64,000 nucleotides of DNA, taken from NCBI GenBank assembly GCA_016183365.1, contig JACPES010000003.1, positions 269,051 through 333,050 of the forward strand. The letters run 5' to 3'. Of the stretch, positions 2,938 to 47,626 are shown piece after piece; the first letter of the stretch is position 1; each line of letters starts with the position of its first letter. The stretch is from Candidatus Collierbacteria bacterium (GTDB taxonomy: Bacteria; Patescibacteriota; Microgenomatia; UBA1400; JACPES01). Position numbers and translations under genes: made by a program. Below the pieces are notes generated by a model that saw only the letters and a list, made by a program, of their open reading frames with translations, did not search any database and had not been told where the DNA came from.

Positions 2938-3254
2938 AAAAGAAACAATTGATCGGATTCGCATTTTTATCATTACTTCTCGGAGCCGGATTGGCTGGCG
3001 GTCTATATGTTATCAACACCCCGGCTAAAATAGCTCCCAGGGCCGTATCCCCCTCCTTAATAAATCAACCGTCTCCGACTAAAGTTTTGGCTCCGGCCAC
3101 AGTCCCGCCTCAAAAACCACCTGCCAAAACACAATTATCGGAACAGGCGATTATCGACGCTTTCGGAACAGTCTCGACAGACTTTGATCTAAATCAGGAC
3201 GGAACCGTTAATTCTTTAGATATTTTGGAATTTAGAAAAACTTTATTGAAGTAG
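2934..3254 (+). CDS. Small N-terminally membrane-anchored protein with a dockerin-like / EF-hand-like calcium-binding repeat
   Basis: ATG at 2934 overlaps the upstream stop (ATGA). It encodes MKKKQLIGFAFLSLLLGAGLAGG (TM or signal), a Pro-rich linker, then DFDLNQDGTVNSLDILEFRKTLL, which matches the dockerin DxNxDGxVNxxD pattern. The 5' part of the 2745 ORF overlaps the previous gene and was trimmed. Confidence 0.45.
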   Translation: MKKKQLIGFAFLSLLLGAGLAGGLYVINTPAKIAPRAVSPSLINQPSPTKVLAPATVPPQKPPAKTQLSEQAIIDAFGTVSTDFDLNQDGTVNSLDILEFRKTLLK

Positions 3255-4265
3255 TTTCGGTTGATCGATCTCCTGAAAAGATACCGTGGAGGTGATTTTT
3301 TGCCCCAATCTTTGGGTATGGCCTGAAACATCGCTGAATTTGTTGTACGCGTTATTGATATGCCCGCCTAAGATGTTTAACGAATCTTCCAATTGTCCAT
3401 AATCTTTTTCCACCGCCCGCAACAGATTTAAAATTTGCCTTGATCGAGAGGCGAATTGTTTGCCTTGAAATGCCCGCATAATTATTGACAGAGTGGCGTA
3501 CATGGTGTTCGGGCTGACCGGATAAATCCTTAAATTCCTGGAGTAATCCATTAAATCGGGGTTAGTGGCGATTTCGTAATATACCGATTCGCTGGGGATG
3601 TACATCATCGCAAAATCGGTAGTCCCTTCGTCCGGCAAAACGTATTTTGAAGAGATGGCCCGAATATGTTTTTTCACGTCGTTGACAAATTCCTTGCCGG
3701 CTTTTTCTCTTTCAGATTTTTCTTCCGCTTGATTCATTTTCTGAAAATTTTCCATCGGGAATTTGCTGTCTATCGGCAAAATTCCGGCGTCGGTTTTGAT
3801 AGCCGCGTCCACCTTGTCTCCGGAAACAAATTGATATTGGAGATAAAAAGAACTTTGAGGAATCATTTGGGCGATTAGATCGTTCAGGACTTGCTCGCCG
3901 ATATTTCCCCGTAGTTTCGGGCTTTTTAAAAATTCGTGCAATTCTTTCATTGATCGGCCGATTTCGCTGAAACTGCCGGTTTCGCGCTTTAACTCGCCGA
4001 TAACCTCGGCAGCTTTAGTCAGGCGCTCATGGATATCGTGGGTTTGTTTAGTCAAAGATTCTGATAAATGGCGGGTAGAATCCGATAAAGTTTCGTTAAG
4101 GACTTTTTTAGTGTCCGAAATATCTCGGCTCATGGTCTTTAACCATTCGGTCATGGTTTCATCGGTCTTAGGTTTTTTTAATTCCTGAATCTGGCGGTTA
4201 AGATACCAGGTGATAGCCGCCAAAACTGCGATTAAAACCGCCGCCGCTAAAGATAGTTCCAGCAT
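3243..4265 (-). CDS. rmuC: DNA recombination protein RmuC
   Basis: N-terminal TM segment, long coiled-coil region, and the RmuC-typical C-terminal region (GNIGEQVLNDLI ... YVLPDEGTTDFAMMYIPSESVYYE). Confidence 0.8.
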   Translation of the reverse strand: MLELSLAAAVLIAVLAAITWYLNRQIQELKKPKTDETMTEWLKTMSRDISDTKKVLNETLSDSTRHLSESLTKQTHDIHERLTKAAEVIGELKRETGSFSEIGRSMKELHEFLKSPKLRGNIGEQVLNDLIAQMIPQSSFYLQYQFVSGDKVDAAIKTDAGILPIDSKFPMENFQKMNQAEEKSEREKAGKEFVNDVKKHIRAISSKYVLPDEGTTDFAMMYIPSESVYYEIATNPDLMDYSRNLRIYPVSPNTMYATLSIIMRAFQGKQFASRSRQILNLLRAVEKDYGQLEDSLNILGGHINNAYNKFSDVSGHTQRLGQKITSTVSFQEIDQPKLLQ

Positions 4266-4333
4266 ATAACTTCTATGATAACATCATTTACGCCTCACTG
4301 TCTTCCGCCCTTGGCGAAACTATATAAATAACC

Positions 4334-4672
4334 ATGGAACAAGTCTATAAAATTCTAGCCCAGATAATCGCCGATACCTCGTCTCCGGATGAAGCCCAAG
4401 CTCTGATATCCGATTTATTCTCCGAAACCGAGAGGCAGGGGATTGCTAAAAGATTAGCCGTAACCTTGATGTTGTCTAATGGCCGGAGTTACAACGAAAT
4501 AAAAAAACAATTGGGGGTCAGCTCGGCCACCATCGCCAGAATTCAGGAATCGCTGGATAAACCCGGAATTAAAATAGCCATTTCAAAAGTTAAAACCGAC
4601 GAATGGGCCGGCAAATTGGCCAATAAATTCGCCGGGGCTTTAGATAAACTTCTTGCCAAACCCACTCCCTGA
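4334..4672 (+). CDS. YerC/YecD family TrpR-like DNA-binding protein
   Basis: 112 aa carrying the ERQGIAKRLAVTLMLSNGRSYNEIKKQLGVSSATIARIQESL helix-turn-helix signature of the TrpR-related YerC family. Confidence 0.75.
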   Translation: MEQVYKILAQIIADTSSPDEAQALISDLFSETERQGIAKRLAVTLMLSNGRSYNEIKKQLGVSSATIARIQESLDKPGIKIAISKVKTDEWAGKLANKFAGALDKLLAKPTP

Positions 4673-4843
4673 TTTTTCCTATTTCCCTCAGTCAAACGAA
4701 ATCTTCCTGTGTCTTTCTTCAAAAACAATTCTAAATTTCTCAAAGACCGAGTCTCGACCCAAGAAATTAACTGATACATGATATTCAAAAGAAAAAACTA
4801 TCGGACAAACTAAATTTTTACTTGCGACTGCAATTTTTAAGCT

Positions 4844-5221
4844 GTGGATATATCCTTTGATTCGACCACCAACTCCGCCAAGATATATTTTTTTCCACTA
4901 AGATTTTATGAATCCCTGCCTGGCTTTAAATGCGTAGCCAACTATCCGGATTTTGTAATGTTTTCCGCCGGAAATTTCTATTTGGGATTAACCACTCATA
5001 AAGGGAAAACGTCGAAAAATTTGTTCAGTGAATTTAATATTGGTTTGGACCATTTTTCTTTTGAGGTAAAATCAAAGAAAGATTTGGAAAACGCGCTGGA
5101 GTTTTTTGATAAAAACAAAATTCCGCACGGAAATATCGATGAACTGTCAAATGGCTTGTTGATTCTGGTATTCCGCGAACCTGATAACATTCAGCTAGAG
5201 CTTTGCTGTAAAGAACAATGA
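4844..5221 (+). CDS. Hypothetical protein, possibly VOC/glyoxalase-like fold
   Basis: 125-aa ORF immediately upstream of metG, with a 4-nt overlap. Weak glyoxalase-like pattern only. Confidence 0.35.
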   Translation: MDISFDSTTNSAKIYFFPLRFYESLPGFKCVANYPDFVMFSAGNFYLGLTTHKGKTSKNLFSEFNIGLDHFSFEVKSKKDLENALEFFDKNKIPHGNIDELSNGLLILVFREPDNIQLELCCKEQ

Positions 5222-6642
5222 GAAAGAAGTTTTATATCACCACTACCATCCCTTACGTTAACGCCGATCCGCATATCGGGTTCGCCTTAGAAATTGTACA
5301 AGCCGATGTTCTGGCAAGATTTCATCGGCTTTTTGGTGATGAAATATTTTTTAATACTGGGACTGACGAGCACGGTCAAAAGATCTATCAAAAAGCATTA
5401 GAAGCAGGAAAAGATCCACAAAAGTATTGCGACGAATACGCCGCTAAATTCGACAATTTAAAATCTTCCCTTAATTTGAGCTACACCAATTTTATCCGGA
5501 CTACCGATCCCCACCATAAAAAATCCGCCCAAGAATTTTGGAAGCTGTGCGCTGCCAAAGGTGATATTTATAAGGCTAATTATAAAGTGAAATATTGTGT
5601 TGGCTGCGAGCTGGAAAAAACCGATTCAGAATTGACTGAAGGTATTTGTCCGATCCATCCCAATCTTAAGTTGGAGATTAGAGAAGAGGAAAACTATTTT
5701 TTCAAATGGTCGGGATACAAAGATAAACTCTTAAATCTCTATAAAGATAATCCCGAATTTGTGGTTCCTGATTTTAGGTATAACGAACTAAAAAAGTTTG
5801 TTACGTCCGGTCTGCAGGATTTTAGTATCTCTAGATTAAAAGAAAAAATGCCATGGGGAGTTGATGTCCCGGATGATCCCAAGCACGTTATGTATGTTTG
5901 GTTTGACGCCTTAGTAAATTATATTTCCGCTACCGGCTGGCCGGAAGACGAAAAAAGTTTCAGCGCTTGGTGGCCGGGAATTCAGATTGCCGGGAAAGAC
6001 AATCTAAGGCAGCAATCGGCCATGTGGCAAGCAATGTTGATGTCAGCCGGACTTCCCAATACAAAACAAATCATGATTCATGGTTTCATTACCAGCGGTG
6101 GACAGAAAATGAGTAAAAGTTTGGGTAATGTGGTAAGCCCATATGATTTGGTTGACAAATACGGAACCGATGCGACAAGATATTATCTTTTGGCAAAAAT
6201 TAATCCATTTGAAGACGGCGATTTCACTTATGCTAAGTTTGAGGAAGCTTACAATTCCGACCTCGCCAACGGACTGGGAAATTTAGTCCAACGGGTAGCA
6301 AAACTCTGTGAATTAAAGAATCTTGTTTTATCTTTTACTAATCCTTTTGATCCTTCTTTTCCATCTATTTCCTCCCATATCGAAAACTTTGAATTTAACT
6401 TAGCCATAGAGGAATTATGGCGGGAATTCAGCGATCTCGACGCCAAAATTAATCTTGACAAGCCATGGAAAAAATCTGACGAGGAAGCGGGTAAAGACTT
6501 AAAGGTATATCTTGAGAAAATCCTGCAATTAACGTTGCCGTTGAGTATTTTTCTTCCCTCAACCGCCGCTAAAATCCAACAGATTTTCGCAGGCCCAAAA
6601 ATTTCCGCCCCCTCCAGCCCCTTGTTTCCACGCATCGGGTAA
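5218..6642 (+). CDS. metG: Methionine--tRNA ligase (short form, no C-terminal tRNA-binding domain)
   Basis: Class I aaRS motifs: PYVNADPHIGFALE (HIGH-like) and GGQKMSKSLGNVV (KMSKS). Overall MetRS-like. Confidence 0.88.
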   Translation: MRKKFYITTTIPYVNADPHIGFALEIVQADVLARFHRLFGDEIFFNTGTDEHGQKIYQKALEAGKDPQKYCDEYAAKFDNLKSSLNLSYTNFIRTTDPHHKKSAQEFWKLCAAKGDIYKANYKVKYCVGCELEKTDSELTEGICPIHPNLKLEIREEENYFFKWSGYKDKLLNLYKDNPEFVVPDFRYNELKKFVTSGLQDFSISRLKEKMPWGVDVPDDPKHVMYVWFDALVNYISATGWPEDEKSFSAWWPGIQIAGKDNLRQQSAMWQAMLMSAGLPNTKQIMIHGFITSGGQKMSKSLGNVVSPYDLVDKYGTDATRYYLLAKINPFEDGDFTYAKFEEAYNSDLANGLGNLVQRVAKLCELKNLVLSFTNPFDPSFPSISSHIENFEFNLAIEELWREFSDLDAKINLDKPWKKSDEEAGKDLKVYLEKILQLTLPLSIFLPSTAAKIQQIFAGPKISAPSSPLFPRIG

Positions 6643-6651
6643 AATATACCC

Positions 6652-8154
6652 ATGGACTCAATAAAACGCTACTTCCTCCGCCACCCGATCCGCACCCGGA
6701 GGGCTTTGGAAATCCTGCCGGGGTCGGTTAGTTGGTTTCTCATTTTATTTCCAATCTGGGGGTCGTTTCTCATTCCAGAAATCGTCGCGATTTACATCGT
6801 TACATTTACGGTATATTGGCTGTATAGGTCTCTCTCTGTGGCTGGTTTTGCGCTCGTCGGACACTTTAAGATCGAGGCCAGTAAAAGGTTTGACTGGGTA
6901 GGAGACCTCGCGTTCTTCCCGGATTGGCAGCGGATTCGTCACATCGTCGTTTTGCCGACGTACAAAGAGCCTTTGGGAACCTTGCAACGATCCTTAAAAG
7001 GCATTGCGAACCAAACATTTCCACTGAAACGAATTCACGTCATTCTTTCATTTGAGGTTCGCGAGGGAGATGCGGTGAAAGAAAAAGCGAACAAGCTTCG
7101 AGAAGAATTTGGAAACCGGTTCGGCACGTTTGACGTTACCTTCCACCCGGATATTCCGGGAGAAGTGAAGGGGAAATCGAGTAATTCTGCGTGGGCAGCT
7201 ACGTCTGTCGTTGAGCCGAAACTCATCAGGAAAGGCATTATCGATGCGAAGTACGCGACTATAACGAGCATGGACGCGGACGCGCAACTCCACCAGAATT
7301 ACCTTGCGGCCCTCGCGTACAACTTTCTTGACCATCCGAAACGGTATGAGCGTTTTTGGCAACCAAGTATCATGTTCTACAACAACATCTGGCGGATTCC
7401 TGCTCCGATTCGGGCTTTGGTTACCGTGTGGGGAGTGATCCACATGTATCTTCTGGTCCGTCGGGACAGGCTCATCAACTTTTCGACATATTCTCTCTCG
7501 CTACAGCTGCTCCGATCATTCGGATATTGGGATACGAACGTGATTCCGGAGGATTACCGTGTCTTCTTTAAGGCATTTTTCGCAACGAAAGGAAGAGTGG
7601 AGGTCGAACCGATTTTCTTACCGGTCTCGATGGATGCAGCCCAGTCTACGACGTTTTGGAGAACGATGGTCAACCAGTACGAACAAGTGAAGCGGTGGGC
7701 GTGGGGAGTTGCGGACGACCAGTACGTCATCCGGCAGACGGTCCTGACCGCAGGTTTACCGTTCTGGGACAAGATCTTGCGGGTGGTCAGGCTCATGGAG
7801 GATCATTTCCTCTGGCCGGTTAACTGGTTTGCGATCACCATTGGCGCCTTGCTCCCGCCGCTGTTGAATCCGACATTTTCAAGGACGGTGATCGGGAAGA
7901 CGCTTCCCCAAGTAAGCTCCGGGATTCTCACTGTTTCGCTTGTTGCGATTATCGTTATCTTATTCATTGACGCTCGGCAACGGCCGAAGCGGCCGGCAAA
8001 TGTTTCTCGGTTTCGGCGGCTTCTTCAACCCCTTGAGTTTTTTCTGCTTCCGGTTGTGGGATTTTTTTTCAACGCTCTCCCCGGTCTTGACGCCCACACC
8101 AGATTGATGATGGGGCGATATTTGGAATACCGGGTAACGGAAAAAGTCGAGTAA
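6652..8154 (+). CDS. Processive family-2 glycosyltransferase (cellulose/chitin-synthase-like), integral membrane
   Basis: N-terminal TM helices, a DxD-type MDADAQ motif, QVKRWAWG (the Q-x-x-R-W motif of processive GT2) and C-terminal TM helices. Noticeably higher G+C than the flanking genes. Confidence 0.7.
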   Translation: MDSIKRYFLRHPIRTRRALEILPGSVSWFLILFPIWGSFLIPEIVAIYIVTFTVYWLYRSLSVAGFALVGHFKIEASKRFDWVGDLAFFPDWQRIRHIVVLPTYKEPLGTLQRSLKGIANQTFPLKRIHVILSFEVREGDAVKEKANKLREEFGNRFGTFDVTFHPDIPGEVKGKSSNSAWAATSVVEPKLIRKGIIDAKYATITSMDADAQLHQNYLAALAYNFLDHPKRYERFWQPSIMFYNNIWRIPAPIRALVTVWGVIHMYLLVRRDRLINFSTYSLSLQLLRSFGYWDTNVIPEDYRVFFKAFFATKGRVEVEPIFLPVSMDAAQSTTFWRTMVNQYEQVKRWAWGVADDQYVIRQTVLTAGLPFWDKILRVVRLMEDHFLWPVNWFAITIGALLPPLLNPTFSRTVIGKTLPQVSSGILTVSLVAIIVILFIDARQRPKRPANVSRFRRLLQPLEFFLLPVVGFFFNALPGLDAHTRLMMGRYLEYRVTEKVE

Positions 8155-8201
8155 TTTGCAGTGCTTGCTATATTCATGGTGTTTGTGATACTTTTTAAAA
8201 C

Positions 8202-9512
8202 ATGAATCAATTTACGGCTTCTTTATGGGGGGACGAGGCGTTCTCCACAATTTTGGCAATGAGAGATCCAGTTGAAATCATTAAGACGGTGGCCAAAGAC
8301 ACTTCCCCATTTCTGCATCCTTTAATACTTCATTACTGGATGAATATCTTTGGGACTTCAGAGGTGGCCATTCGCAGTCTATCATTTATTTTTTATTTCC
8401 TGACGGTGGTTACCGCCTATTTTATTGGCAAAACTATTGAAAATAAAAAAACGGGATTGTTGGTCGCTTTAATGGTAGTTGTAAACCCGTTCCTATTTGC
8501 CTATGCTTTCGAAGGTCGAATGTACTCGCTTCTACTCTTTACTTCCACCTTGTCTACATATTTTTTTCTAACTAGAAAACCCTGGCTTCATGCTTTAGCC
8601 ACCGCTGCGGCTTTATACACTCACCATTTTTCTTTGACAGTGATTGGAATTCAAGGCATCTGGACCTTTTTTCAAGCTCTGACTTTGCCTAAAAAATCTA
8701 ATTTTGTCAAAAGCATCTTCAGCCGATATTGGTCATTTGGTTTGGCGTTATTGATTTACTCTCCCTGGCTTCCAACTCTTTATCAACAAACCCAAATGGT
8801 AATTTCAGGTTTTTGGTTGCCTAAACCATCTTTTTCTGATTTGACTGGTTTGTATTCAAGTTTTGTAATTGGAAGCCATGAAGGGATCGTTAGACTTATC
8901 CTTTTGGGATTGGTGGGAACCATTCTGATTTTTAGGAAATGGAGGCAAAACAAATGGCAATATTGGTTTTGTCTAAGTTGGTTCCTAATTCCTACTTTTT
9001 TAGTTTGGCTTTTCTCCCAATTTAAGCAATCAATATTTTTTGACCGCTATTTGCTGGCCTCAATTCCCGGGGGATTGTTTTTTTTGGTTTCCAGAAGAAG
9101 GGGTTGGTATTCTCTGGCCCCAATTATTTTGTTAATGGTTTTTTTATTCTGGTATGACTGGCAATATTTCGGCAATCCTACCCGAAGGCCATTTAGGGAA
9201 TTGGCTGACTATGTCAAACAGACACGCCAGCCCGGAGATGAATTGGTGAACTGGAATACCACCGCCCATCATCTTTGGGAATTAAAATATTATCAGATTC
9301 CAGCGCCTATTTATGCCGACGGGGTAACAGAATTACCATTCTTTGTGGGGACTGCCTTGATGCAGACCGGAGACATTATTCAAAAACTTCCCAATGCTCC
9401 CCGATTGGGTATAATCTACAGTGGCGATCCCGGGATGATTGAAGTCGATAATTATGAAATTATGGAAGAAAAAAAGTTTGGAGATTTGACGTTTCAATGG
9501 TGGCGGTTTTAG
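8202..9512 (+). CDS. GT-C superfamily membrane glycosyltransferase (ArnT/PMT-like)
   Basis: 436 aa, polytopic, with an N-terminal WGDEAFS acidic motif in the first loop, typical of ArnT/PMT-type GT-C enzymes. Confidence 0.55.
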   Translation: MNQFTASLWGDEAFSTILAMRDPVEIIKTVAKDTSPFLHPLILHYWMNIFGTSEVAIRSLSFIFYFLTVVTAYFIGKTIENKKTGLLVALMVVVNPFLFAYAFEGRMYSLLLFTSTLSTYFFLTRKPWLHALATAAALYTHHFSLTVIGIQGIWTFFQALTLPKKSNFVKSIFSRYWSFGLALLIYSPWLPTLYQQTQMVISGFWLPKPSFSDLTGLYSSFVIGSHEGIVRLILLGLVGTILIFRKWRQNKWQYWFCLSWFLIPTFLVWLFSQFKQSIFFDRYLLASIPGGLFFLVSRRRGWYSLAPIILLMVFLFWYDWQYFGNPTRRPFRELADYVKQTRQPGDELVNWNTTAHHLWELKYYQIPAPIYADGVTELPFFVGTALMQTGDIIQKLPNAPRLGIIYSGDPGMIEVDNYEIMEEKKFGDLTFQWWRF

Positions 9513-9544
9513 TGGAAGGAGTTTTGGCTTGGGAAAATATATTC

Positions 9545-9583
9545 GGCAAAACCTTACCACAGGTTAACTCCGGGATTTTGACA
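9545..9583 (+). other. Duplicated fragment of the 3' part of the GT2 gene at 6652..8154
   Basis: Translates as GKTLPQVNSGILT, against GKTLPQVSSGILT encoded at 7895..7933. About 80% nucleotide identity over 39 nt, followed by a GC-rich tail. Confidence 0.5.
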
Positions 9584-9825
9584 ATTTTCCCTCTGGCGCG
9601 GCGTTTTCCGTCCACCGACCCGGGATAGGCCAGAATGAGAACGACAATTCAGAATAACATAATAAGAATAAGCGAGAGTAGGAAAACCACATCGAAAGTC
9701 ATAATTACTTTTTACGCATTAATATGAGACTAATCAGCCAACAAATTAGTACTGCTACTAATCCTAATATTAGTACTTCAGCACGGAAGCTGTCAAATGA
9801 AATAAGCGGTGATAAAATAATCAAA

Positions 9826-10450
9826 ATGAAACTTAATCCCTTTAAACTCGAACGTTATTTTGCCAAGTACGAATTTTCTGCCAAATATTTGTTATCCAGT
9901 TCCGATTGCGATGGATTGGGGCAGAAACAATTATTGCAATTAGCGGATGAAGAAACAAAAAATCTTTGGGATAATCTTCACTTGGGGTATACGGAATCTT
10001 TTGGCCATCCGTTGCTTAGGCAAGAAATATCTAAGTTATATCAGGAGGTTAATAAAGATGAGGTATTGGTCGTAGTCCCGGAAGAAGGAATATTTATAAC
10101 TCTGAACACTATGTGAAATTTTATCGATAATTTCTTTAAGATCAAAGGACAGAATAATTTCCGATCACCTGAATAGAATCGAGAGAAATTTAAAAGCTTT
10201 TGAAATTTTTATGAATAAACATCAAAATTTATTTGACTGGATAAGGCCAAATGTCGGGACTATTTGTTTCCCTAAGTTGAAAACTGAAATAGGGGCAGAA
10301 GAATTTTGCGATAAAGTCGTTACATCTGCCGGAATAATGGTTATTCTTTCGAGTGTTTATGACTATGGCGATAGGCATATCAGGGTAGGTTTTGGTCGGG
10401 AAAATTTTCTGGAAGTATTGAATGCTTTTGATAAATTTTTTATAGATCGC
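9826..10450 (+). pseudogene. PLP-dependent aminotransferase (class I/II) with the central catalytic core deleted
   Basis: 5' ORF encodes a typical aminotransferase N-terminus (MKLNPFKLERYFAKYEFSAKYLLSSSDC...). 3' ORF (10211..10540) encodes a typical C-terminal domain (…HIRVGFGRENFLEVLNAFDKFF). The two are only about 95 nt apart, and the roughly 200-aa middle, including the PLP-lysine region, is absent. Confidence 0.6.
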
Positions 10451-10468
10451 TCTTTTTCGTTAATGTCA

Positions 10469-10500
10469 TTAACTCTCCGCGGCCGCGTAGAGAAAAGAGC
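10469..10500 (+). promoter_or_regulatory. Conserved CCGCGGCCGCG-containing motif directly upstream of the argS ATG
   Basis: TTAACTCTCCGCGGCCGCGTAGAGAAAAGAGC. A near-identical copy lies at 44137..44170 upstream of another ATG, and related copies lie in the 44899/45897 direct repeats. Confidence 0.45.
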
Positions 10501-10511
10501 AAAAACAAAAT

Positions 10512-12254
10512 ATGAAATTTACTATCGACAAAGCCATTAAAACCGCAATTCAAAAAACGCTTAAAGATCTTGGGTTTCCGGAAACTCAAGTATCGCTCGA
10601 GCATCCGGCCGTCGAAGTCCACGGCGACTATAGCTCAAATATTGCGTTAACTCTTTTTCCGTCATTGCGATCCGCCAGTCGGCGGAGTGGCAATCTTAAA
10701 TTTTCTTCTCCCCGCCAACTGGCCGAATCAATCGTCGACGAACTTTCCTCAAATAAAGAATTGAAAAAAATCGTCTCCAAAATCGAAGTCGCCAGTCCGG
10801 GGTTTATAAATTTTATTCTCAACGAGAAATTATTGATCATTGGACTCGAAGAAATTCTGAAAGAAAAAAATGGATATGGAAGTTCCAATTCAGCAAAAGG
10901 TAAAACTATGGTCATAGATTATTCTGCTCCTAACATAGCCAAGCGTTTTACCATCGGTCATTTACGCTCGACAATTATCGGTCAGGCGATTTATAACATT
11001 TATAAATTTTTGGGCTGGAAGTGCATCGGCGATAATCATCTTGGCGATTGGGGGACGCAGTTCGGAAAAATGATTGTGGCAATCCGTAAATGGGCCGGAA
11101 AATCCGTGGATGAACTGACAATTGACGAAATGGAAAGTTTATATGTCCGATTTCATCAGGAAGCAGAAACTAATAAAGAATTGGATGAGGAGGCCCGGGT
11201 TGCATTTAAAGCTCTCGAAGACGGTAAGAAAGAAGAACGGGAACTTTGGAAAAAACTCGTTATCCGGTCGATGGAAGAATTTCAGAAAATTTACGATTTG
11301 TTAGGGGTCAAAATAGACGAGGTTTATGGAGAAAGTTATTACGAAAGTATGATGCCTCCGATTATCGATGAAGCCAAGAAAAAAGGTGTTGCCATTGAAA
11401 GTAAAGGCGCGTTAATTATTCCCTATCCGAAAGACGCTCTCCCGCCGAGTATGCTTCTTAAAAGCGATGGGGGAACAACTTATTTAACTCGGGATTTGGC
11501 GACAATCAAATTTAGGAAAGAAAAATGGAATCCTGATTTGATGATATACGAAGTCGGATCAGAACAAACTTTGCATTTCCGGCAAGTTTTCTTGGCAGTA
11601 GAACTTCTTGGTTGGGCAAAGCGCAACCAATTCTTTCATATACCGCATGGACTAATAAGGTTGAAAGAGGGGAAAATAAGTACTCGAAAAGGAAATGCCG
11701 TTAAGCTGGAGCAGGTATTGACGGAAGCGATAGACAGGGCTAAAAAATTCAATGATGATCCTGAAATTTCTAAAATGGTAGGTATTGGCGCGGTTAAATA
11801 TAACGATCTTAAACATTCTCCATCAACAGGATATGTTTTCGATTGGGCTGAAATGATAAATTTGGACGGTAACTCCGGTCCTTATCTCCAATACACCCAC
11901 GCCCGCTGCCGATCCGTATTAAACAAGGCTGGCGTTTTTCCTTCTTCCTTTTTCCCTCTTCCTTCTTCCTTAAACTTCGAGGAGCTTTCCATCCTCCGCT
12001 TTATCTACCGTTTCCCCGAAGTCGTCATGGAGGCGGCTAAACAATACGCCCCGAATTTAGTCTGTACTTTTCTTTACGAACTGGCCCAGCGGTTTAACAC
12101 TTTCTACAACAAGCACCGGATTTTAGGAGACAACGCTCAACGTTCAACGTTCAACGCTCAATTAGTTTTCCGTCTCCTCCTGACTTCCTCCGTCGCCCAA
12201 GTCCTCAAAAATGGCCTAGCTCTTCTCGGTATCCAGTCTCCGAACGCTATGTAA
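10512..12254 (+). CDS. argS: Arginine--tRNA ligase
   Basis: ArgRS N-terminal domain and the DYSAPNIAKRFTIGHLRSTIIG (HIGH-region) signature. Contains an in-frame palindromic insertion at 10661..10695 and a short CAACGTT tandem repeat near the 3' end. Confidence 0.88.
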   Translation: MKFTIDKAIKTAIQKTLKDLGFPETQVSLEHPAVEVHGDYSSNIALTLFPSLRSASRRSGNLKFSSPRQLAESIVDELSSNKELKKIVSKIEVASPGFINFILNEKLLIIGLEEILKEKNGYGSSNSAKGKTMVIDYSAPNIAKRFTIGHLRSTIIGQAIYNIYKFLGWKCIGDNHLGDWGTQFGKMIVAIRKWAGKSVDELTIDEMESLYVRFHQEAETNKELDEEARVAFKALEDGKKEERELWKKLVIRSMEEFQKIYDLLGVKIDEVYGESYYESMMPPIIDEAKKKGVAIESKGALIIPYPKDALPPSMLLKSDGGTTYLTRDLATIKFRKEKWNPDLMIYEVGSEQTLHFRQVFLAVELLGWAKRNQFFHIPHGLIRLKEGKISTRKGNAVKLEQVLTEAIDRAKKFNDDPEISKMVGIGAVKYNDLKHSPSTGYVFDWAEMINLDGNSGPYLQYTHARCRSVLNKAGVFPSSFFPLPSSLNFEELSILRFIYRFPEVVMEAAKQYAPNLVCTFLYELAQRFNTFYNKHRILGDNAQRSTFNAQLVFRLLLTSSVAQVLKNGLALLGIQSPNAM

Positions 12255-12375
12255 GATTTTCCCTACCCTTCTTATCCTTCTTATCCTTCTGATCCTTCTA
12301 ATTCTTCTCGTCTTACGCTCCTCTCCTAATATCTATATCTCTCTTAATATCCTTTAAAATCCTTATAATTATCTA

Positions 12376-12405
12376 TTGACAGGCAATGGTTTCAGTCACT
12401 ATACT
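12376..12405 (+). promoter_or_regulatory. Sigma70-like promoter (TTGACA - 18 nt - TATACT) upstream of the 12414 CDS
   Basis: TTGACA at 12376-12381 and TATACT at 12400-12405. The ATG lies 9 nt downstream, possibly giving a leaderless or short-leader transcript. Confidence 0.4.
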
Positions 12406-12413
12406 GTTTTCAA

Positions 12414-13358
12414 ATGAAACTTCGTTTTGCCACAGTTTTTCTCTTTCAATTATTATTGATGTCTGTTTTTGTTCCCAAGATTCAAGCTTGGTGGTTGGTC
12501 GATCAATTCGGCCAGTTGATTAAAATGGATTCGAGCGGCCAGGTTTTAGGTGATGAAGATAAGGCTCCAAAAAAAGAAGATAAAAATGAGATCAAGAGTG
12601 GTGTCAAGGCAGAAACTACAAATACTAATTTTTCAACCAATCCTAAAGGAAATATTGAGCTAAAGTCAGGTGAAAATAAAAGAGAATTTGAAAATAAAAG
12701 AATAAAAATAAAAATGGAGCAGAAAAATGGCGAGCTGAAAATAAAAACAAAAAGTGAATTAACCGGCGAAGAAATTGAAATTGAGACTAGAATGGAAAAT
12801 AAAGAGAGGCCGGAAAAGACAGAGCCGCGGGAATCACGGGAATCGAAAGAATCCGAAGAATCAGTAGAGGTTCAGGAGACGCAGGAACAGCCGGAAAATG
12901 AAACAGAGATAATGAGGATTAGAGAGCGGGAAGAAAAGAACGAAGTTAAGATAAATACCAGAAATGGCGATTTCGTTATTGATAGGAATAATGTCGGAGC
13001 CACTACTAATTTCCCGTTATCAGTAGATTCTTCAACTAATATTTTGACTGTGACCACTCCGTTAGGAGAAAAACAGGTAACTGTTTTGCCGGATCAGGCA
13101 GTTCAAAATATGTTATCCAGGAATGTAATTGATCAGATTTCCGGTCAAGATAGCACCAGTTCATCCAGTCGGGTAAAAATGAGCCAAAAAATCGACGGGT
13201 CATTGGTTTATGAAGTCGAGGGTGAAAAACAAGAAAAACTATTTGGCTTGATGCCGTTGAAATTCAAAAAAACCGCTATAGTCTCCGTCGAAACAGGAGA
13301 ATTAATAGAAACCAAGGAATCTTTTGTTAACAAGTTCCTCGGGCTGATTTCGTTTTAA
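12414..13358 (+). CDS. Secreted hypothetical protein with a Lys/Glu-rich low-complexity region
   Basis: Signal peptide (MKLRFATVFLFQLLLMSVFVPKIQA), a long K/E-rich charged repeat region, and a C-terminal globular part. Confidence 0.55.
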   Translation: MKLRFATVFLFQLLLMSVFVPKIQAWWLVDQFGQLIKMDSSGQVLGDEDKAPKKEDKNEIKSGVKAETTNTNFSTNPKGNIELKSGENKREFENKRIKIKMEQKNGELKIKTKSELTGEEIEIETRMENKERPEKTEPRESRESKESEESVEVQETQEQPENETEIMRIREREEKNEVKINTRNGDFVIDRNNVGATTNFPLSVDSSTNILTVTTPLGEKQVTVLPDQAVQNMLSRNVIDQISGQDSTSSSSRVKMSQKIDGSLVYEVEGEKQEKLFGLMPLKFKKTAIVSVETGELIETKESFVNKFLGLISF

Positions 13359-27124: not shown

Positions 27125-28812
27125 TTTCCATAATTATTTTTTTATCGTTAACCGGGCCATCAATCGTTTCCGGTAATTTCGCTTTTGTGTTTGACATGGG
27201 TCGCGATCAGCTGTGGATCAGAGATATGGTGGAATTGCGGCGTCCGACTTTGATCGGTCCGTGGGGGTCAATTGCCGGTATTTTCTTTGGGCCGCTATGG
27301 TTCTATTTGTTATCTATCCCGTATTTGATTTTTAAAGGTGACCCGCGGGGAGCGGTTCTAGTTTCTCTGGCGGCTAATTTACTGACGATGATAATCGGAT
27401 GGCAATTTTTGCGGAAAAACAAACATCCGGTCGCCGGGAATATTTTCGCGATCTTGTATTCAGTTTCTCCTTTAACGATTAGCCTTTCATCTTTTGCTTT
27501 CCATGCTAATTTATTGCCTTTAATTACGCTGTTATTTTTTATCGGTCTCTATGTTTTTCATAAATCATTATTCATAAATCATAAATCATTGCTTGGTCTG
27601 TCTTTAGCGGCTCTATCCGCCTCTCTAGCCTATCATTTTGAACCCGCCGCCGGAGTGATGTTAACGGGGTTCATGACTGTTTTAATCTTAATAAATATGC
27701 GGCAAATGAAGATATTTCAATCATTTAAATCATTAAAAAATATATTAATAGCAATTATCTTATTTTTGATCCCCTTCCTCCCTCAACTTGTTTTTGAACT
27801 CCGCCACGATTTCATCCAAACCAAATCTTTGTTTGGCTATTTTAGCGGAGAAAACACCAGTTTGGGCGGGGTTCTGCCTTTAAGCGAAAGAATTGTTGAG
27901 CGGGGAATTAAGCTGGGCGAAACCTTGACATATTCCTTATTCACCATTGATTCTAATCTTTGGAAAATAGTTTTCTTGGGACTTTTTATCCTCGCGCTTC
28001 TTGCTTTAACAAAATTGAAAAAGTTCACCCTGAATCTCGATAGTTTTACTCTTTACTCTTTACTCTTTACCCTTTACTTTCTATCTTTCCATTATTTGGC
28101 TTATACATTTTTGTTTCCGGCAGAATTAAAAGGTTGGTATCTTAGCGGTTTCGTTTCAATTCATATTTTGGCATTTAGTTTGATTTGTGAATTTGTTTAT
28201 GGAGCCCCACGCTCTATCAATAGTGCGACATCCCGCTCGTTTCGCCAGAGCTTCAACGAGGCGAGCCTAAGCGCAATCCATCCACGGGTAAACTCACGAT
28301 TTTCTTGCGAAAGGCGGGATAAATCTAGCCATTTATTTATTTTAACCATTTTGATATTTATAATTATTAGGAATATTAATCCTTTTGATCGGATTTTCGG
28401 CGGACAAAAACCTCCGCTCCCTCCGGAAACTTTCAGCGCCCAAATTGAAGTGGTGGATTGGATCTATCGAGATGCAATTCATAAGGATAAGCCGTTTGCG
28501 GTTTACACCTACACTCCGCCGGTTTATGACTATCAATATCAGTATCTTTTATGGTGGCGCGGGATAAATAAATATAAGTTATTGCCTGCCGAGTATAGTT
28601 ATAAGCCGGGTGAGACCTCTTATCTTCAATATAAAGATCGATTTGTTTCCTCAATCTGGAAACCTAAAGACGCCCAGTTAATGTATTTGATAATTGAGCC
28701 GGATAATCTGGAGTTCAGAGTAGCCGGATGGATGGGAAATTTTTTAAGGTCTGATAAACTGGAAACCCGGGAATTTCCTTCTAAAGTCAAAGTTTTATTC
28801 GGAAGCTTATAA
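27100..28812 (+). CDS. GT-C-like polytopic membrane protein (paralog of 23812 and 51903) carrying a roughly 110-bp in-frame repeat-element insertion
   Basis: N-terminal FDMGRDQLW…GPWGSIAGIFFGPLWFYLL pattern. GC-rich insertion at 28187..28297. Confidence 0.5.
   Translation: MRSYFFLLVSIIIFLSLTGPSIVSGNFAFVFDMGRDQLWIRDMVELRRPTLIGPWGSIAGIFFGPLWFYLLSIPYLIFKGDPRGAVLVSLAANLLTMIIGWQFLRKNKHPVAGNIFAILYSVSPLTISLSSFAFHANLLPLITLLFFIGLYVFHKSLFINHKSLLGLSLAALSASLAYHFEPAAGVMLTGFMTVLILINMRQMKIFQSFKSLKNILIAIILFLIPFLPQLVFELRHDFIQTKSLFGYFSGENTSLGGVLPLSERIVERGIKLGETLTYSLFTIDSNLWKIVFLGLFILALLALTKLKKFTLNLDSFTLYSLLFTLYFLSFHYLAYTFLFPAELKGWYLSGFVSIHILAFSLICEFVYGAPRSINSATSRSFRQSFNEASLSAIHPRVNSRFSCERRDKSSHLFILTILIFIIIRNINPFDRIFGGQKPPLPPETFSAQIEVVDWIYRDAIHKDKPFAVYTYTPPVYDYQYQYLLWWRGINKYKLLPAEYSYKPGETSYLQYKDRFVSSIWKPKDAQLMYLIIEPDNLEFRVAGWMGNFLRSDKLETREFPSKVKVLFGSL
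28187..28297. repeat. GC-rich repeat element with GTGAATTTG … AAACTCAC termini inserted in frame in a GT-C gene
   Basis: Encodes …EFVYGAPRSINSATSRSFRQSFNEASLSAIHPRVNS…. Related to the 32749 element (GTGAAGTTT…AAACTTCAC). Confidence 0.55.
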
Positions 28813-31746: not shown

Positions 31747-33315
31747 ATGAACGATAAGCAAAAAGATAAAATTATGCTGCCTTTTATAATTTTTATCTCC
31801 GTTATTCTTTTTTTCTATCGGCTCGGGGAGACTGCTTTAACCAATTGGGACGAGGCTTGGTTTGGATCTGTGGCCCAAGACATGGTTTCTTCCGGTAATC
31901 TTTTGACAGGGAAATGGAATGGGCAAACATTTTTTTATGAACCCCCGCTTTTGGTTTGGTTGTTGTCTTTGTCGATTAAAGTTTTCGGCGAGAGCGAATT
32001 TTGGCTGCGGTCGGTCAGCGCTATAGCCGGACTTTTTACGGTTGTCGGTTGTTATTTTTTGACATTTCGAATCACAAAATCAAGACCGGCCGGAATTTTG
32101 TCAGGGCTGATAATTTTGTCTGATATCGAGTTTCTGTTCCGCAGCCGCCAAGTCAACGTCGAAATCCTTCTGACAGTTTTATTGTTGTGGTCGATGATTT
32201 TTATCTCTAAAGCTTATGAAAGCAATCGGCGACGGTGGATATTTTTTTCCGCTATTTGTTTAGGTTTGGCCTTTTTAACTAAACGAGCCAGTCCGGTTTT
32301 AGCTCTGCCGGCAGTCGGTTATCTTTTGTTAAAAACAACCTTCCGTGAACATCCTGTTCCTTTGTTTATATTCTTTATAACTTTTATAACCGTCACTTTA
32401 CCCTGGTATTTGCTTAGTTATTTTAAATGGGGGGACCAATTTATTAATGAGTTTTTTATCGGATATACTCTCAATAAAATTAAATCAGTCAACGTCAGTA
32501 TCGGAACTTCACCATTTTTTTACTTAAATTCTATTAAGCATGCCTTTAAATTCTGGTCTCTTTTAATTCCGCTTGCGGCCGTTTGGGCAGCGGTAACAGC
32601 TTTCCGTGACCGGAAAATTGCGGGAATAATGATTTTCATTTTGACTTTTCTATTTTTTCTGACCTTAGCGCCAATCAAATCTTCGTGGTTTTTCTTACCT
32701 CCTCATCCATTCTTGGCTATTTTGATAGGATTATTTATTTCAAGAATTGTGAAGTTTATCCTGCGAAGCCCCGTACCGTCTGGTACAGGGCGAAGCAGGA
32801 TCCCGCTCCGCGGGACGAAACTTCACAATCAAATAATTGTCATTTCAGACGCAGCAAAGCGAAGATCCGGAATTTATGCGGATATTCTATATAGCTTTCA
32901 ACTCGCCTCGCGACGAAGCGGGTTCAGGGTTGGGGTGATATTAGTTGTAATAATCTCTTTGGCGGGATGGCAACTTTATCGTTACCGTCACGATTACATA
33001 GTTCCCGACACCACCGGAAACCAAGCGATGATTTCCAGTTTGGCCGGGGCATTATCTAACAAAGGCGAACCGATTTATTTGGATGACGAATATCTGCCGG
33101 TGGCGGTTTTTTACAGCCATAAAAAAATTATTCCTTTAAGATTTAGCCGGACGGTTAATCGCGTCCCGAGCCAAACTTCTATTCCTGATAACAGTCTGAT
33201 TTTAACCAATCCGGAAACATTTCCCGCTTTAAAATCCGCTACCGGAATTTTGTTTGAGGAGCTTTTTTCCGTTAGGGATTTGATTTTGGTTAGAGCTAAA
33301 GGATTTAAGGTTTAA
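31747..33315 (+). CDS. GT-C superfamily glycosyltransferase (ArnT / PMT family, GT83/GT39-like)
   Basis: LTNWDEAWFGSVAQDMVSSGNLLTGKWNGQTFFYEPPLLVWL, a textbook ArnT/PMT N-terminal signature. Carries a roughly 190-bp in-frame GC-rich insertion (32749..32935). Confidence 0.7.
   Translation: MNDKQKDKIMLPFIIFISVILFFYRLGETALTNWDEAWFGSVAQDMVSSGNLLTGKWNGQTFFYEPPLLVWLLSLSIKVFGESEFWLRSVSAIAGLFTVVGCYFLTFRITKSRPAGILSGLIILSDIEFLFRSRQVNVEILLTVLLLWSMIFISKAYESNRRRWIFFSAICLGLAFLTKRASPVLALPAVGYLLLKTTFREHPVPLFIFFITFITVTLPWYLLSYFKWGDQFINEFFIGYTLNKIKSVNVSIGTSPFFYLNSIKHAFKFWSLLIPLAAVWAAVTAFRDRKIAGIMIFILTFLFFLTLAPIKSSWFFLPPHPFLAILIGLFISRIVKFILRSPVPSGTGRSRIPLRGTKLHNQIIVISDAAKRRSGIYADILYSFQLASRRSGFRVGVILVVIISLAGWQLYRYRHDYIVPDTTGNQAMISSLAGALSNKGEPIYLDDEYLPVAVFYSHKKIIPLRFSRTVNRVPSQTSIPDNSLILTNPETFPALKSATGILFEELFSVRDLILVRAKGFKV
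32749..32935. repeat. Composite GC-rich repeat insertion in frame in the ArnT-like gene
   Basis: Three parts: a GTGAAGTTT…AAACTTCAC hairpin element (32749..32826), a GTCATTTCAGACGC…CCGGAAT element (32839..32873) and a GC-rich tail. Encodes …KFILRSPVPSGTGRSRIPLRGTKLHNQIIVISDAAKRRSG…LASRRSGFRVG…. Confidence 0.6.
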
Positions 33316-43906: not shown

Positions 43907-44130
43907 AACGGGGTGGAAAGATTGGATGAATGTTAAGGTTCTGCAAAAGGTAGTTATTGTGGACGAGATAGATAATATTTTGCTTCAAATTCTCATTTTT
44001 GACTATTTGCTATCAGGCTAAAGTTAAAGGAATTTCTCCAAATGTGGTTTTAAGCCAAGAATATGCCGAATACCGCTGGCTCTCAAAATCAGAAGCGCTA
44101 TCGCTCAATTCAATTCCTATCTTTTTAATC
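43907..44130 (+). pseudogene. Possible NUDIX hydrolase remnant (frameshifted fragments)
   Basis: Frame 1: MKGKIAVTGWKDWMNVKVLQKVVIVDEIDNILLQIL. Another frame: …SQEYAEYRWLSKSEALSLNSIPI, which is a NUDIX C-terminal-like pattern. No intact ORF. Weak evidence. Confidence 0.25.
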
Positions 44131-44136
44131 TTTGCT

Positions 44137-44170
44137 TTTAACTCTACGCGGCCGCGGATAGAAAAGAGCA
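44137..44170 (+). promoter_or_regulatory. Second copy of the TTAACTCT-CGCGGCCGCG-TAGAAAAGAGCA motif, abutting the ATG at 44172
   Basis: Near-identical to 10469..10500 upstream of argS. Confidence 0.45.
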
Positions 44171-44171
44171 T

Positions 44172-44873
44172 ATGACTTATCAAAAACTCCAAAAAGAACT
44201 GTTTGATCGGATTGAAATTCAGGCTAAAATCGGCAATTCTTCAAATACTCTAGTTGCAATGCGAAATTTTGATAATGACAATAGCCGGTGTTTAACCTCA
44301 GTATTTTTTCTGTCTCAAACTAAGGTTGTGTCAGAAATACAAAAATTTACAGAAGAACTACAGGTTGCTGATAACAGGCAATATTATTATCCAGTCTTTT
44401 CGCTTCATATAACTATCCAAAACATTAGAAATGAAAACATTCAGCCTTTATTCAATCAAGAAGATATTGATATGACCAAGCAGGTTTTTGCAAAAATCAT
44501 TCCGAAACATAAACCAATTAAATGCCATTTGAAAGGGTTATTTGAATTGCCGACAAGCATATCTATTAGAGGATATACAGATGAATCTCTGAAAGATTTG
44601 GTTTTAGACTTAAAGAGAGAACTGATTTCTGTTGGAGTTCCTGACAATAAAAAATATGCTTCCGATTCGATATTTTTCTGCAACAGCACCATCTGTCGTT
44701 ACCAAGTTCAACCTAATGATAAATTTTTCGAGATTGTCAGACGGAACAAGAATCGGGATTTCGATGCCGTTGACATCAATGAGGTCAGTTTGATGACTAC
44801 AAATGCGGTTGCTGATCAGAAATACACCAACATTATTAACAGTATCCCCTTAGCTTCCCCTAATTTCTTTTAG
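44172..44873 (+). CDS. Hypothetical protein (single HxTx motif reminiscent of 2H phosphoesterases)
   Basis: 233 aa. …YYYPVFSLHITIQNI… has one H-x-T-x motif, and a second could not be found, so no family is assigned. Confidence 0.5.
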   Translation: MTYQKLQKELFDRIEIQAKIGNSSNTLVAMRNFDNDNSRCLTSVFFLSQTKVVSEIQKFTEELQVADNRQYYYPVFSLHITIQNIRNENIQPLFNQEDIDMTKQVFAKIIPKHKPIKCHLKGLFELPTSISIRGYTDESLKDLVLDLKRELISVGVPDNKKYASDSIFFCNSTICRYQVQPNDKFFEIVRRNKNRDFDAVDINEVSLMTTNAVADQKYTNIINSIPLASPNFF

Positions 44874-45978: not shown

Positions 45979-46038
45979 ATACTAATTAATAGAATTCATC
46001 AAAAGGGATTTATCAGTCGTTGTATACTCACTGTTGTC

Positions 46039-47373: not shown

Positions 47374-47375
47374 TC

Positions 47376-47546: not shown

Positions 47547-47626
47547 AGGAAAAATTGTTCGCGCCTTGCCGGAATACGATGATTGCAAAAAAACTGCAGC
47601 GGAGAAAAAAGTGTCGATTCAAACAG

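Follow-up and report, generated by a model that had tools for sequence, protein, structure and literature searches.

The Chlorella virus (Cv) and Xenopus hyaluronan synthases (HAS), the bacterial cellulose synthase BcsA, and the chitin synthase Chs1 hold a GT-A domain between N-terminal and C-terminal transmembrane helices and carry DxD, ED, and QxxRW motifs; BcsA possesses a PilZ domain. ArnC/ArnT and GtrB/GtrC are pairs of a GT2 and a GT-C enzyme, of which ArnC and GtrB are small polyprenyl-phosphate sugar transferases. Aminoacyl-tRNA synthetases are among the core genes for which xenologous replacement by homologous recombination is a classic finding, and GC-biased gene conversion in bacteria is associated with recombining genes of raised GC3. 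The window, the whole stretch of 64,000 nucleotides analysed here, belongs to a genome of Candidatus Collierbacteria (Microgenomates, CPR).

The GT2 gene (6652..8154, plus strand) encodes a protein of 500 residues, predicted to be membrane-embedded and to resemble hyaluronan and cellulose synthases. Residues 204–435 match the Pfam family Glyco_trans_2_3 (PF13632) at 39.9 bits, above the cut-off of 27. The residues D208-A-D210, E300-D301, and Q345-V-K-R348-W349 are invariant in 30 homologs, as the DxD, ED, and QxxRW motifs are in the synthases, and presumably fill the roles established for DxD, (T)ED, and QxxRW. The C-terminal YxVTxK is taken to be similar to the gating-loop FxVTxK of BcsA. In the AF2 model (pLDDT 85.2, pTM 0.86), transmembrane helices flank the GT domain on both sides, a predicted arrangement like that of the synthases. 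Cv-HAS, BcsA, XlHAS1, and Chs1 are the top Foldseek matches in the PDB (E 2e-10 to 1e-5, TM 0.43–0.51), although the TM values are only moderate. PcManGT (6yv7), a minimal non-channel relative, is also among the Foldseek matches. The original prediction of a cellulose-synthase-like GT2 with a QVKRW motif is supported by the Pfam match, the motif, and the nearest folds, those of HAS and BcsA.

Sequence similarity of GT2 to any solved structure is undetectable. Unlike in BcsA, Pfam detects no PilZ or other accessory domain, and the PgaC/IcaA model TIGR03937, whose cut-off is 422 bits, gives a score of 17.4. Every named protein among 3378 homologs is from CPR bacteria, the closest are all CPR/Microgenomates proteins, and the family is, as far as the matches show, confined to CPR. 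Literature searches on glycosyltransferases of CPR bacteria and on gene transfer turned up no work dealing with this family in particular. Most likely, the enzyme would polymerise a nucleotide-sugar into an envelope glycan, together with the adjacent GT-C protein.

The GT-C gene (8202..9512, plus strand) encodes a PMT_2/GT39-like glycosyltransferase of 436 residues (Pfam PF13231, 33.1 bits, cut-off 26.1), and the identical NCBI protein is annotated as glycosyltransferase family 39, from Candidatus Collierbacteria. Its composition is host-like, with a GC of 0.400 and a GC3 of 0.407. As in ArnC/ArnT and GtrB/GtrC, a PMT_2/GT39-type GT-C gene immediately follows a GT2 gene in several Microgenomates lineages, but the GT2 member here is a 500-residue, multi-helix, synthase-like protein with QxxRW and not a small transferase like ArnC or GtrB. 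The pair is colinear over 2.8 kb in the relatives L066 and L067, and colinear in L068 as well. GT-C also comes after GT2 in the Gottesmanbacteria-type loci L048–L057 and L060, and lies 1–2 kb downstream in L042 and L058. The colinearity in three relatives argues against a fresh insertion of GT-C, and the earlier suggestion that this low-GC gene was inserted at 8202..9512 is thus rejected. The colinearity with L066 and L067 ends at 9439–9503.

GT2 is a core gene of the lineage, located directly downstream of metG (5218..6642, plus strand). Of 60 genome loci in Collierbacteria, Woesebacteria, Gottesmanbacteria, and other groups, about 50 have their genes in the order rmuC (minus strand), trpR-like, metG, GT2. 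Since GT2 follows metG in about 50 loci, no new gene was acquired; at most, an allele was replaced.

Three adjacent genes, rmuC, metG, and GT2, point to three different relatives with 100% support. In neighbor-joining trees, rmuC pairs with L010 (100% bootstrap), metG pairs with L071 (100% bootstrap), and GT2 groups with L069/L061, its groupings having bootstraps of 100%, 99.5%, and 93%. The window rmuC is 96% identical to that of L010 and 45% to that of L061, and the corresponding values for the trpR-like gene are 90% and 52%. GT2 is 74% identical to L010, 84% to L061, and 90% to L069, while metG is 76% identical to L071 and 55% to L010. The nearest phylogenetic relatives sought for GT2 are all CPR/Microgenomates, and the nearest alleles are those of L069 (90% amino acid, 84.5% nucleotide identity) and L073 (84.1% nucleotide identity). 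L069 is a contig of 1.6 kb, and its homology is limited to 6638–8157, that is, GT2 plus a 14-nt leader. A repeat at the ends of the L069 contig occurs neither in the window nor in the other loci.

The conserved upstream neighbour, metG, is itself a mosaic. Positions 5227–6302 share 81.6% nucleotide identity with L071, and the 3′ part matches L010, L061, and L062 at about 70%. On both sides the backbone is L010-like: upstream it includes rmuC and the trpR-like gene, and downstream, where L010-like DNA resumes at 9592, it includes a small ORF, the 5′ end of argS, and a gene for a protein of 314 residues.

No ORF of the window departs in composition as strongly as GT2. Its GC is 0.510, compared with a mean of 0.413 (sd 0.036, 51 window ORFs; z +2.7), and its GC3 of 0.605 is the window maximum, compared with a mean of 0.423 (sd 0.053, same ORFs; z +3.4). 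GC2 is 0.393, which is ordinary for the window. Synonymous codon usage is the most deviant of 44 ORFs (z +4.5, runner-up +2.1), and the 1.5-kb tile at 6501–8000 displays the lowest tetranucleotide correlation to the window (0.47, z -6.8). The GC rises near 6550 and falls at 8154. The GC of GT2 exceeds that of its flanks by 0.095 to 0.10, compared with a mean difference of +0.004 in orthologous loci (sd 0.019, maximum +0.044, n = 53). The higher G+C content relative to the flanking genes noted at the outset is therefore confirmed by windowed GC, codon usage, and tetranucleotides alike. Horizontal acquisition, which had been proposed on this ground, would apply at most to the allele, with its foreign-looking composition and conflicting tree, and not to the gene itself.

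GT2 was probably swapped for the homologous allele of a different Microgenomates lineage, an orthologous replacement that would bring no new function. As in xenologous replacement, GT2 retains its position while its ancestry and composition differ from those of its neighbours, and metG is mosaic as well. Here, however, the donor would lie within the same candidate phylum, and the stump of a second copy would survive beside the locus. We infer the direction and number of the transfers from these patterns, and the donor may have been GC-rich. GT2 is GC-rich and GT-C host-like, and the two do not have the same nearest relatives, so at least two events are needed.

Alternatively, GT2 may have been inherited vertically and its GC3 raised in place by GC-biased conversion or synonymous-site selection, a GT2-like relic downstream of GT-C, described below, being the product of an older rearrangement or a lost paralog. 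We consider this history unlikely, although several observations favor it. Most close relatives have a higher GC3 in GT2 than in its flanks (six loci with at least 70% identity, mean +0.06), and the family-wide offset has a mean of +0.013 and is positive in 67% of cases (p 0.045); among 58 loci, however, none has a larger offset than the window (z 2.8). The locus is demonstrably prone to recombination and, as in GC-biased gene conversion, GC3 but not GC2 is raised and most of the subclade shows a positive offset, but the mosaic neighbours metG (0.41) and GT-C (0.41) are not GC3-enriched. The nucleotide identity of GT2 to L010, 69%, is like that of other backbone genes (70–72%), whereas the GT2 tree conflicts with those of rmuC and metG at 99–100% bootstrap and the GC content changes stepwise at the gene borders.

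A still larger contrast is present in a second low-GC genome, L073, in which GT2 has a GC of 0.540 and a GC3 of 0.683 and the other genes have a GC of 0.41–0.43. Vertical inheritance accommodates this contrast, which would not be expected from one simple transfer. On the other side, the GC-rich relative L062 (genome GC 0.535, GT2 GC3 0.735) represents a possible donor type. Given a GC-rich GT2 in low-GC L073, a GC-rich donor and a recombination-linked GC bias are not separable, and the GC3 pattern is explained equally well by a locus-specific upward pressure on GC3, such as biased conversion associated with recombination, and by a GC-rich donor. Polarised substitutions, a weak indicator of amelioration here, number 48 GC-to-AT and 40 AT-to-GC in the window lineage and 19 and 48, respectively, in L069, with third positions saturated relative to the outgroups.

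The GT2-family relic spans 17 codons at 9539..9589 on the plus strand (IFGKTLPQVNSGILTIF) and corresponds to GT2 codons 413–429 (7888..7938, plus strand; VIGKTLPQVSSGILTVS). In the GT2 model, these residues form a helix in the C-terminal membrane region, in which all of 30 homologs share G415, K416, L418, P419, Q420, and S423. The core of the relic, 9545–9583, encodes GKTLPQVNSGILT and matches 12 of 13 amino acids of GT2 codons 415–427, with 27 of 39 nucleotides in common. The original prediction that this stretch re-encodes part of GT2 holds at the amino acid level, but the GT2 counterpart, GKTLPQVSSGILT, is encoded by 7894–7932; the interval first given, 7895–7933, is one base off and out of frame. 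The relic matches family-invariant residues, contains a subclade-specific Gly, and has Ile as in L010 at a position where the resident GT2 has Val. Among the sequences compared, the hexapeptide GKTLPQ is present only in GT2 genes and at 9545.

It is improbable that the 17-codon match is a chance resemblance, which would leave the compositional anomaly as the only real signal. The match is short, and no GT2 similarity extends beyond 9539–9589 on either side (all frames, 9513–9723 and the rest of the window). At the nucleotide level, 27 of 39 is within chance, as 6 of 20 Markov nulls give such a diagonal on one strand. At the protein level, by contrast, tblastn against the window yields 30.8 bits with an E value of 0.005 (0.005–0.007 for the whole window). 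None of 300 second-order Markov nulls reaches this score (maximum 30.0 bits), and the best score in 595 kb of related real non-GT2 sequence is 25.8 bits. Against a shuffled control, the 39-nt match is thus nonsignificant as DNA and significant as protein. The ungapped core scores about 30 bits, the level of the null maximum; the full 30.8 bits of tblastn depend on a gapped extension (ARRFPS...), a coincidental one that runs into the small ORF's antisense. This extension was considered as a GT2 remnant and rejected, as the reading also exists in L010, at a distance of 414 nt from its GT2. A family HMM run on six-frame translations finds its best window match here, at the correct profile positions 411–427, yet scores 1.5 bits, a 17-residue piece being too short for its sensitivity. 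The relic also lies on the same strand as GT2, in the first non-coding stretch downstream and at a block junction, and hits family-invariant residues, all of which argue against chance.

The relic is best read as the leftover of a second, different GT2 copy. Matches in the core number 11, 12, and 4 of 13 at first, second, and third codon positions, so that 9 of the 12 nucleotide differences fall at third positions. This concentration indicates that the relic diverged as a separate functional gene. Nucleotide identity to orthologs is 63–70% (33 of 51 for the resident, 34 of 51 for L010, and 31–36 of 51 for others), and this nearly equal distance points to a different, once-functional GT2 copy, although the range does not resolve the source lineage. 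Gene X, a second GT-C-like gene located after GT-C in L066–L068, was considered as the source and is unmatched. An RNA or a terminator was also considered and rejected: Rfam at E<=1 gives nothing relevant, the folding z is 0.11, and no terminator was detected.

A recent partial duplication of the 3′ end of the foreign GT2, by insertion of GT-C or recombination between two copies, was the history first proposed, and the order of GT2, GT-C, and fragment on the same strand would fit it. It is now very improbable: an identity of 69% with differences mostly at third positions denotes long divergence under purifying selection and not a recent copy, the resident gene does not resemble the fragment more closely than about 38 orthologs do, the GT2–GT-C junction is ancestral in L066, L067, and L068, and flanking direct repeats and mobility genes are absent. 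Over positions 4000–13000 of the window, no integrase, transposase, or flanking repeat was found; the tRNAs nearest to the locus lie at 13.7–14.3 kb of the window.

The genes next to the relic are decaying. A small hydrophobic ORF (9589..9702, minus strand), common to L010, is disrupted by an in-frame TGA at 9651–9649 and has lost its own stop. TGA is the terminator of 13 among 44 window ORFs and therefore a genuine stop codon. Over 9592–9671, blastn identity to L010 is 77.5% with two 3-nt indels; the L010 counterpart is MSFNIIFLLSLIILLIMALIVVIMAYPGPVDGKRRARN (tblastn E 5.7e-12). The last 13 codons differ from L010 by six synonymous changes and one non-synonymous change. These C-terminal codons are what was initially taken for a GC-rich tail of the fragment, which is instead the antisense of this conserved minus-strand ORF. 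Further downstream, an aminotransferase class I/II pseudogene (9826..10540, plus strand) consists of two pieces in different frames, 9826–10116 and 10211–10540, matching residues 1–82 and 292–354 of PDB 8fft (370 residues). About 210 central residues have been deleted.

Under the replacement history, the stretch from metG to GT-C is a recombinational patchwork within an L010-like backbone on both sides. The 5′ part of metG is L071-like, GT2 falls in a GC3-rich allele lineage with L069 and L073, and GT-C is L066/L067-like. The former resident GT2 may have been cut off as the GT2–GT-C segment was joined by an illegitimate right-hand crossover. The relic, which lies between the end of colinearity at 9439–9503 and the restart of L010-like DNA at 9592, would then be the stump of this former allele at the exact junction of the GT-C block and the L010-like backbone, in the position and orientation of GT2 in L010. 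Deletions would subsequently have trimmed the stump, and the same decay may have disrupted the small ORF and gutted the aminotransferase gene. Against this scenario, it calls for one more deletion, about 630 nt long, with its end at the stop codon of the small ORF.

The sharp composition borders at a conserved gene would also be expected of an assembly or binning chimera, with reads of a GC-richer relative stitched into the contig, but this is excluded by the recovery of the sequence at 100% identity, borders included, in four further independently assembled runs (contigs of 6–28 kb), and by in-frame junctions whose spacers, 9 and 47 nt, are of normal length. The P0242 (L072) and L063–65 contigs are 100% identical to the window; population variation within the cluster is thus absent.

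The GT2 locus is a case of ordinary genome mosaicism, composed of recombination and gene decay, and involves no new gene or system. GC3 anomalies are well known, as are pseudogene relics and orthologous replacement, and current views stand. As a clean and well-controlled case, the locus illustrates how gene-sized segments recombine among related CPR lineages and leave a physical scar, and it bears on the reliance of MAG-based CPR phylogenies and species concepts on single loci. GT2 itself is a very conserved, CPR-restricted, predicted envelope glycan synthase linked to metG, and it has no solved or characterised relative by sequence.

A more speculative and improbable extension is that the GC3-rich GT2 lineage of the window, L069, and L073 spreads gene by gene through low-GC Microgenomates, the relic being the footprint of such a sweep. 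The allele would perhaps spread by changing a surface glycan recognised by phages or hosts. In a weaker variant, the relic may be kept within a 43-residue ORF (9497–9628) as a decoy of the GT2 membrane helix.

Between GT2 (6652-8154, plus strand) and argS (10512-12254, plus strand) lies the GT-C ORF of 436 residues (8202-9512, plus strand). The roughly 1 kb from GT-C to argS contains no intact gene. An NCBI protein on a 588-kb Candidatus Collierbacteria contig is identical to GT-C, which assigns the window to a Microgenomates (CPR) genome. GT2, an ORF of 500 residues, directly follows metG (5218-6642, plus strand), and a block with rmuC and a trpR-like gene occupies 3233-4668. Mobility genes and flanking repeats were not found bordering GT2.

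The GT2 protein matches the Pfam family Glyco_trans_2_3. A DxD motif (residues 208-210), an ED motif (300-301), a QxxRW motif (345-349), and a C-terminal YxVTxK motif are invariant across 30 homologs. Related solved structures were not detectable by sequence or profile search. The AlphaFold model of GT2 is confident (pLDDT 85), and its best matches in the PDB are Chlorella virus hyaluronan synthase, BcsA, Xenopus HAS1, and Chs1, with E values of 2e-10 to 1e-5 and TM-scores of 0.43-0.51. The Pfam match, the invariant motifs, and these structural matches justify the label cellulose/chitin-synthase-like at the level of fold and motifs. The protein does not qualify as a BcsA or PgaC equivalog. Homology search returned 3378 matches, and every named close homolog is a CPR protein.

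As the original prediction proposed, GT2 is a compositional outlier, and this holds for each measure applied. Its GC and GC3 are 0.510 and 0.605, against means of 0.413 and 0.423 for 51 ORFs in the window (z +2.7 and +3.4). The GC3 is the highest of these ORFs, and the GC2 is ordinary. The synonymous codon usage of GT2 is the most deviant among 44 ORFs (z +4.5; runner-up +2.1), and by tetranucleotide correlation with the window, the tile 6501-8000 ranks far below all others (0.47, z -6.8). GC steps up near 6550 and down at 8154. An assembly chimera is excluded, because four further runs, each assembled independently, give the sequence with 100% identity. Nor is the elevated GC a family trait: GT2 exceeds its flanks by 0.10 in the window, compared with a mean of +0.004 in 53 orthologous loci (sd 0.019, maximum +0.044). 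The excess of GT2 GC3 over that of metG and rmuC, +0.153, is the largest among 58 loci (z 2.8). Elsewhere in the window, a minus-strand ORF of 114 residues at 46979-47323 also has an unusually high GC (0.519, z +2.9), and the tiles over 46001-48000 show a low tetranucleotide correlation. Rfam and tRNA searches of this ORF region gave no match.

GT2 was not horizontally acquired as a gene, given its conserved position and its CPR-only named homologs. Among 60 loci from Collierbacteria, Woesebacteria, Gottesmanbacteria, and further Microgenomates, about 50 share the order rmuC (minus strand), trpR-like gene, metG, GT2. The proposed foreign origin survives in a narrower form, as replacement of the allele within the phylum, which is indicated by conflicting trees. 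The rmuC and trpR-like genes are 96% and 90% identical to those of L010, a related Microgenomates locus, but only 45% and 52% identical to those of L061, another such locus. GT2 is 74% identical to its counterpart in L010, 84% to that in L061, and 90% to that in L069, a third related contig. For metG, the identity is 76% to the related locus L071 and 55% to L010. Neighbor-joining trees group GT2 with L069 (100%), then with L061 (99.5%) and L070 (93%), but rmuC with L010 and metG with L071 (100% each).

The homology with L069 is gapless, 84.5% identical in nucleotides, and spans exactly the GT2 gene and 14 nt upstream. The rmuC/trpR-like block is 85% identical in nucleotides to L010, whereas other shared genes reach about 70%. 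The gene metG is itself a mosaic: its 5' 1.1 kb (5227-6302) is 81.6% identical in nucleotides to L071, and its 3' end resembles L010, L061, and the related locus L062. The pattern in metG and in the rmuC/trpR-like block suggests that the locus underwent more than one exchange, and the GT2 allele differs in ancestry from its neighbors. Taken together, the conflicting identities, the trees, and the metG mosaic show the locus to be a patchwork built by gene-sized recombination among related lineages. For GT2, orthologous replacement is the best description, and the finding as a whole adds one more example of familiar processes, genome mosaicism and gene decay of the ordinary kind.

The compositional contrast recurs outside the window organism, in a second low-GC genome. 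In the related contig L073, GT2 (187-1689) is 84% identical in nucleotides to the window allele and has a GC of 0.540 and a GC3 of 0.683; the other genes of the contig have a GC of 0.41-0.43. One GC-rich relative, L062 (genome GC 0.535, GT2 GC3 0.735), could represent a donor type. A locus-specific upward pressure on GC3, for example biased gene conversion, explains the recurrence in L073 equally well, and GT2 GC3 lies above that of the flanks in close relatives generally (mean +0.06). Polarised substitution counts in GT2 have to be read with third positions that are saturated relative to the outgroups. The 1655-bp contig L069, which carries the closest GT2 allele, starts and ends with the same 27 nt (1-27 and 1629-1655; CCTGCGAAGCAGGATCTGGCTCCGCCA, with a hairpin-like core), a repeat absent from the window. 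By eye, short TAAATTCCC-type repeats lie on both sides of GT2 in L069 and L073, possibly a dispersed repeat that interrupted the assembly.

Downstream of GT-C, positions 9545-9583 encode GKTLPQVNSGILT, and the resident GT2 encodes GKTLPQVSSGILT at 7894-7932, one nucleotide upstream of the originally predicted 7895-7933. The two segments agree in 12 of 13 residues and 27 of 39 nucleotides, with nine of the 12 differences at third codon positions. The match reaches 17 codons (9539-9589) once one more conservative residue pair is added on each side, and nothing aligns beyond on either side. In tblastn the match scores 30.8 bits (E 0.005 for the window). All 300 Markov nulls stay below this score, and the highest value in 595 kb of real sequence from relatives is 25.8 bits. 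Outside GT2 genes, the hexapeptide GKTLPQ occurs only at this fragment. The match thus exceeds chance at the protein level but not at the DNA level taken alone, so that the shuffled control originally proposed would have been ambiguous if run on DNA.

The fragment was predicted to duplicate the 3' end of the present GT2, and this reading fails: it is 63-70% identical in nucleotides to every ortholog, and the resident gene is no closer. It matches the family-invariant residues and a glycine found in 25 of 105 family members, about a quarter, including the closest relatives of the window. It also carries an isoleucine as in L010, where the resident GT2 has valine. The equal distance to orthologs and this residue pattern mark the fragment as the relic of a different, once-functional GT2 copy. 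In the identical contig L072, the gene caller placed a 43-residue plus-strand ORF (MVAVLVEGVLAWENIFGKTLPQVNSGILTIFPLARRFPSTDPG) at 9497-9628, which begins within the 3' end of GT-C and includes the relic. This ORF shows no sign of conservation elsewhere. Searches of 9505-9730 for RNA families, unusual folding, and terminators gave nothing that would explain the stretch.

The GC-rich tail that had been assigned to the fragment is instead a small minus-strand ORF homologous to one in L010, and so not part of the relic. Over 9592-9671 the identity to L010 is 77.5%, and the alignment contains two 3-nt indels. The L010 counterpart (7915-8028) is a minus-strand ORF of 38 codons for a small hydrophobic protein, and the window copy (9589-9702, minus strand) matches it with a tblastn E value of 5.7e-12. 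A codon-by-codon reading of the last 13 codons counts six synonymous differences and a single replacement. In the window, an in-frame TGA at 9651-9649 interrupts the ORF, whose own stop is gone; this genome uses TGA as a regular stop, at the end of 13 of 44 ORFs. A sigma-70-like promoter match lies nearby at 9796-9767 (minus strand).

Further downstream, two plus-strand ORF pieces in different frames (9826-10116 and 10211-10540) match residues 1-82 and 292-354 of PDB 8fft and form a class I/II aminotransferase pseudogene, from which about 210 central residues are deleted between the pieces. With the disrupted small ORF, this remnant marks the kilobase after GT-C as a stretch of decaying genes. 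Its C-terminal tail (10415-10510, …SLTLRGRVEKRAKTK…) weakly resembles translated 44124-44216 (minus strand; E 0.03), which could reflect a short repeated element or chance. In L073, a T-box-like leader (1781-2024) lies between GT2 and an operon containing ArgRS; the full model is covered at 28 bits, against a gathering score of 93. Nothing similar precedes argS in the window, and by eye the L010 intergenic region at about 7640-7900 contains a similar stretch.

GT-C had been proposed as a fresh insertion, which its distribution contradicts. GT2 and GT-C are colinear with two related loci, L066 and L067, over 2.8 kb, and also with a third, L068. In all three, GT-C is followed by another GT-C-like gene, after which comes argS. 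In Gottesmanbacteria-type loci GT-C likewise follows GT2.

The DNA flanking the metG-to-GT-C block is L010-like, upstream in rmuC and the trpR-like gene and downstream in the small ORF, the 5' end of argS, and a gene of 314 residues. In L010, the left-hand neighbor of the small ORF is GT2, oriented as the relic is here. The L066/L067-like GT2-GT-C block ends at 9439-9503 and L010-like sequence begins at 9592; the relic falls precisely in between. We infer a three-step history, including the direction and number of events, as the simplest reading. A GT2-GT-C segment from a relative would have been joined in, its right-hand junction formed illegitimately within the GT2 then resident. The 3' stump of that gene would have been left behind, and later deletions would have cut it to 17 codons. 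The GC-rich GT2 allele may have come with this event, although a separate arrival is more probable, since GT-C is host-like in composition and differs from GT2 in its nearest relatives.

With the GT-C protein as the tblastn query, further GT-C/PMT_2-like membrane proteins were found at about 27-33 kb, 37-40 kb, and 62 kb, with matches including 62085-62540 (E 1e-10), 31960-32211, and 27382-28248. Membrane glycosyltransferases are abundant in the window.
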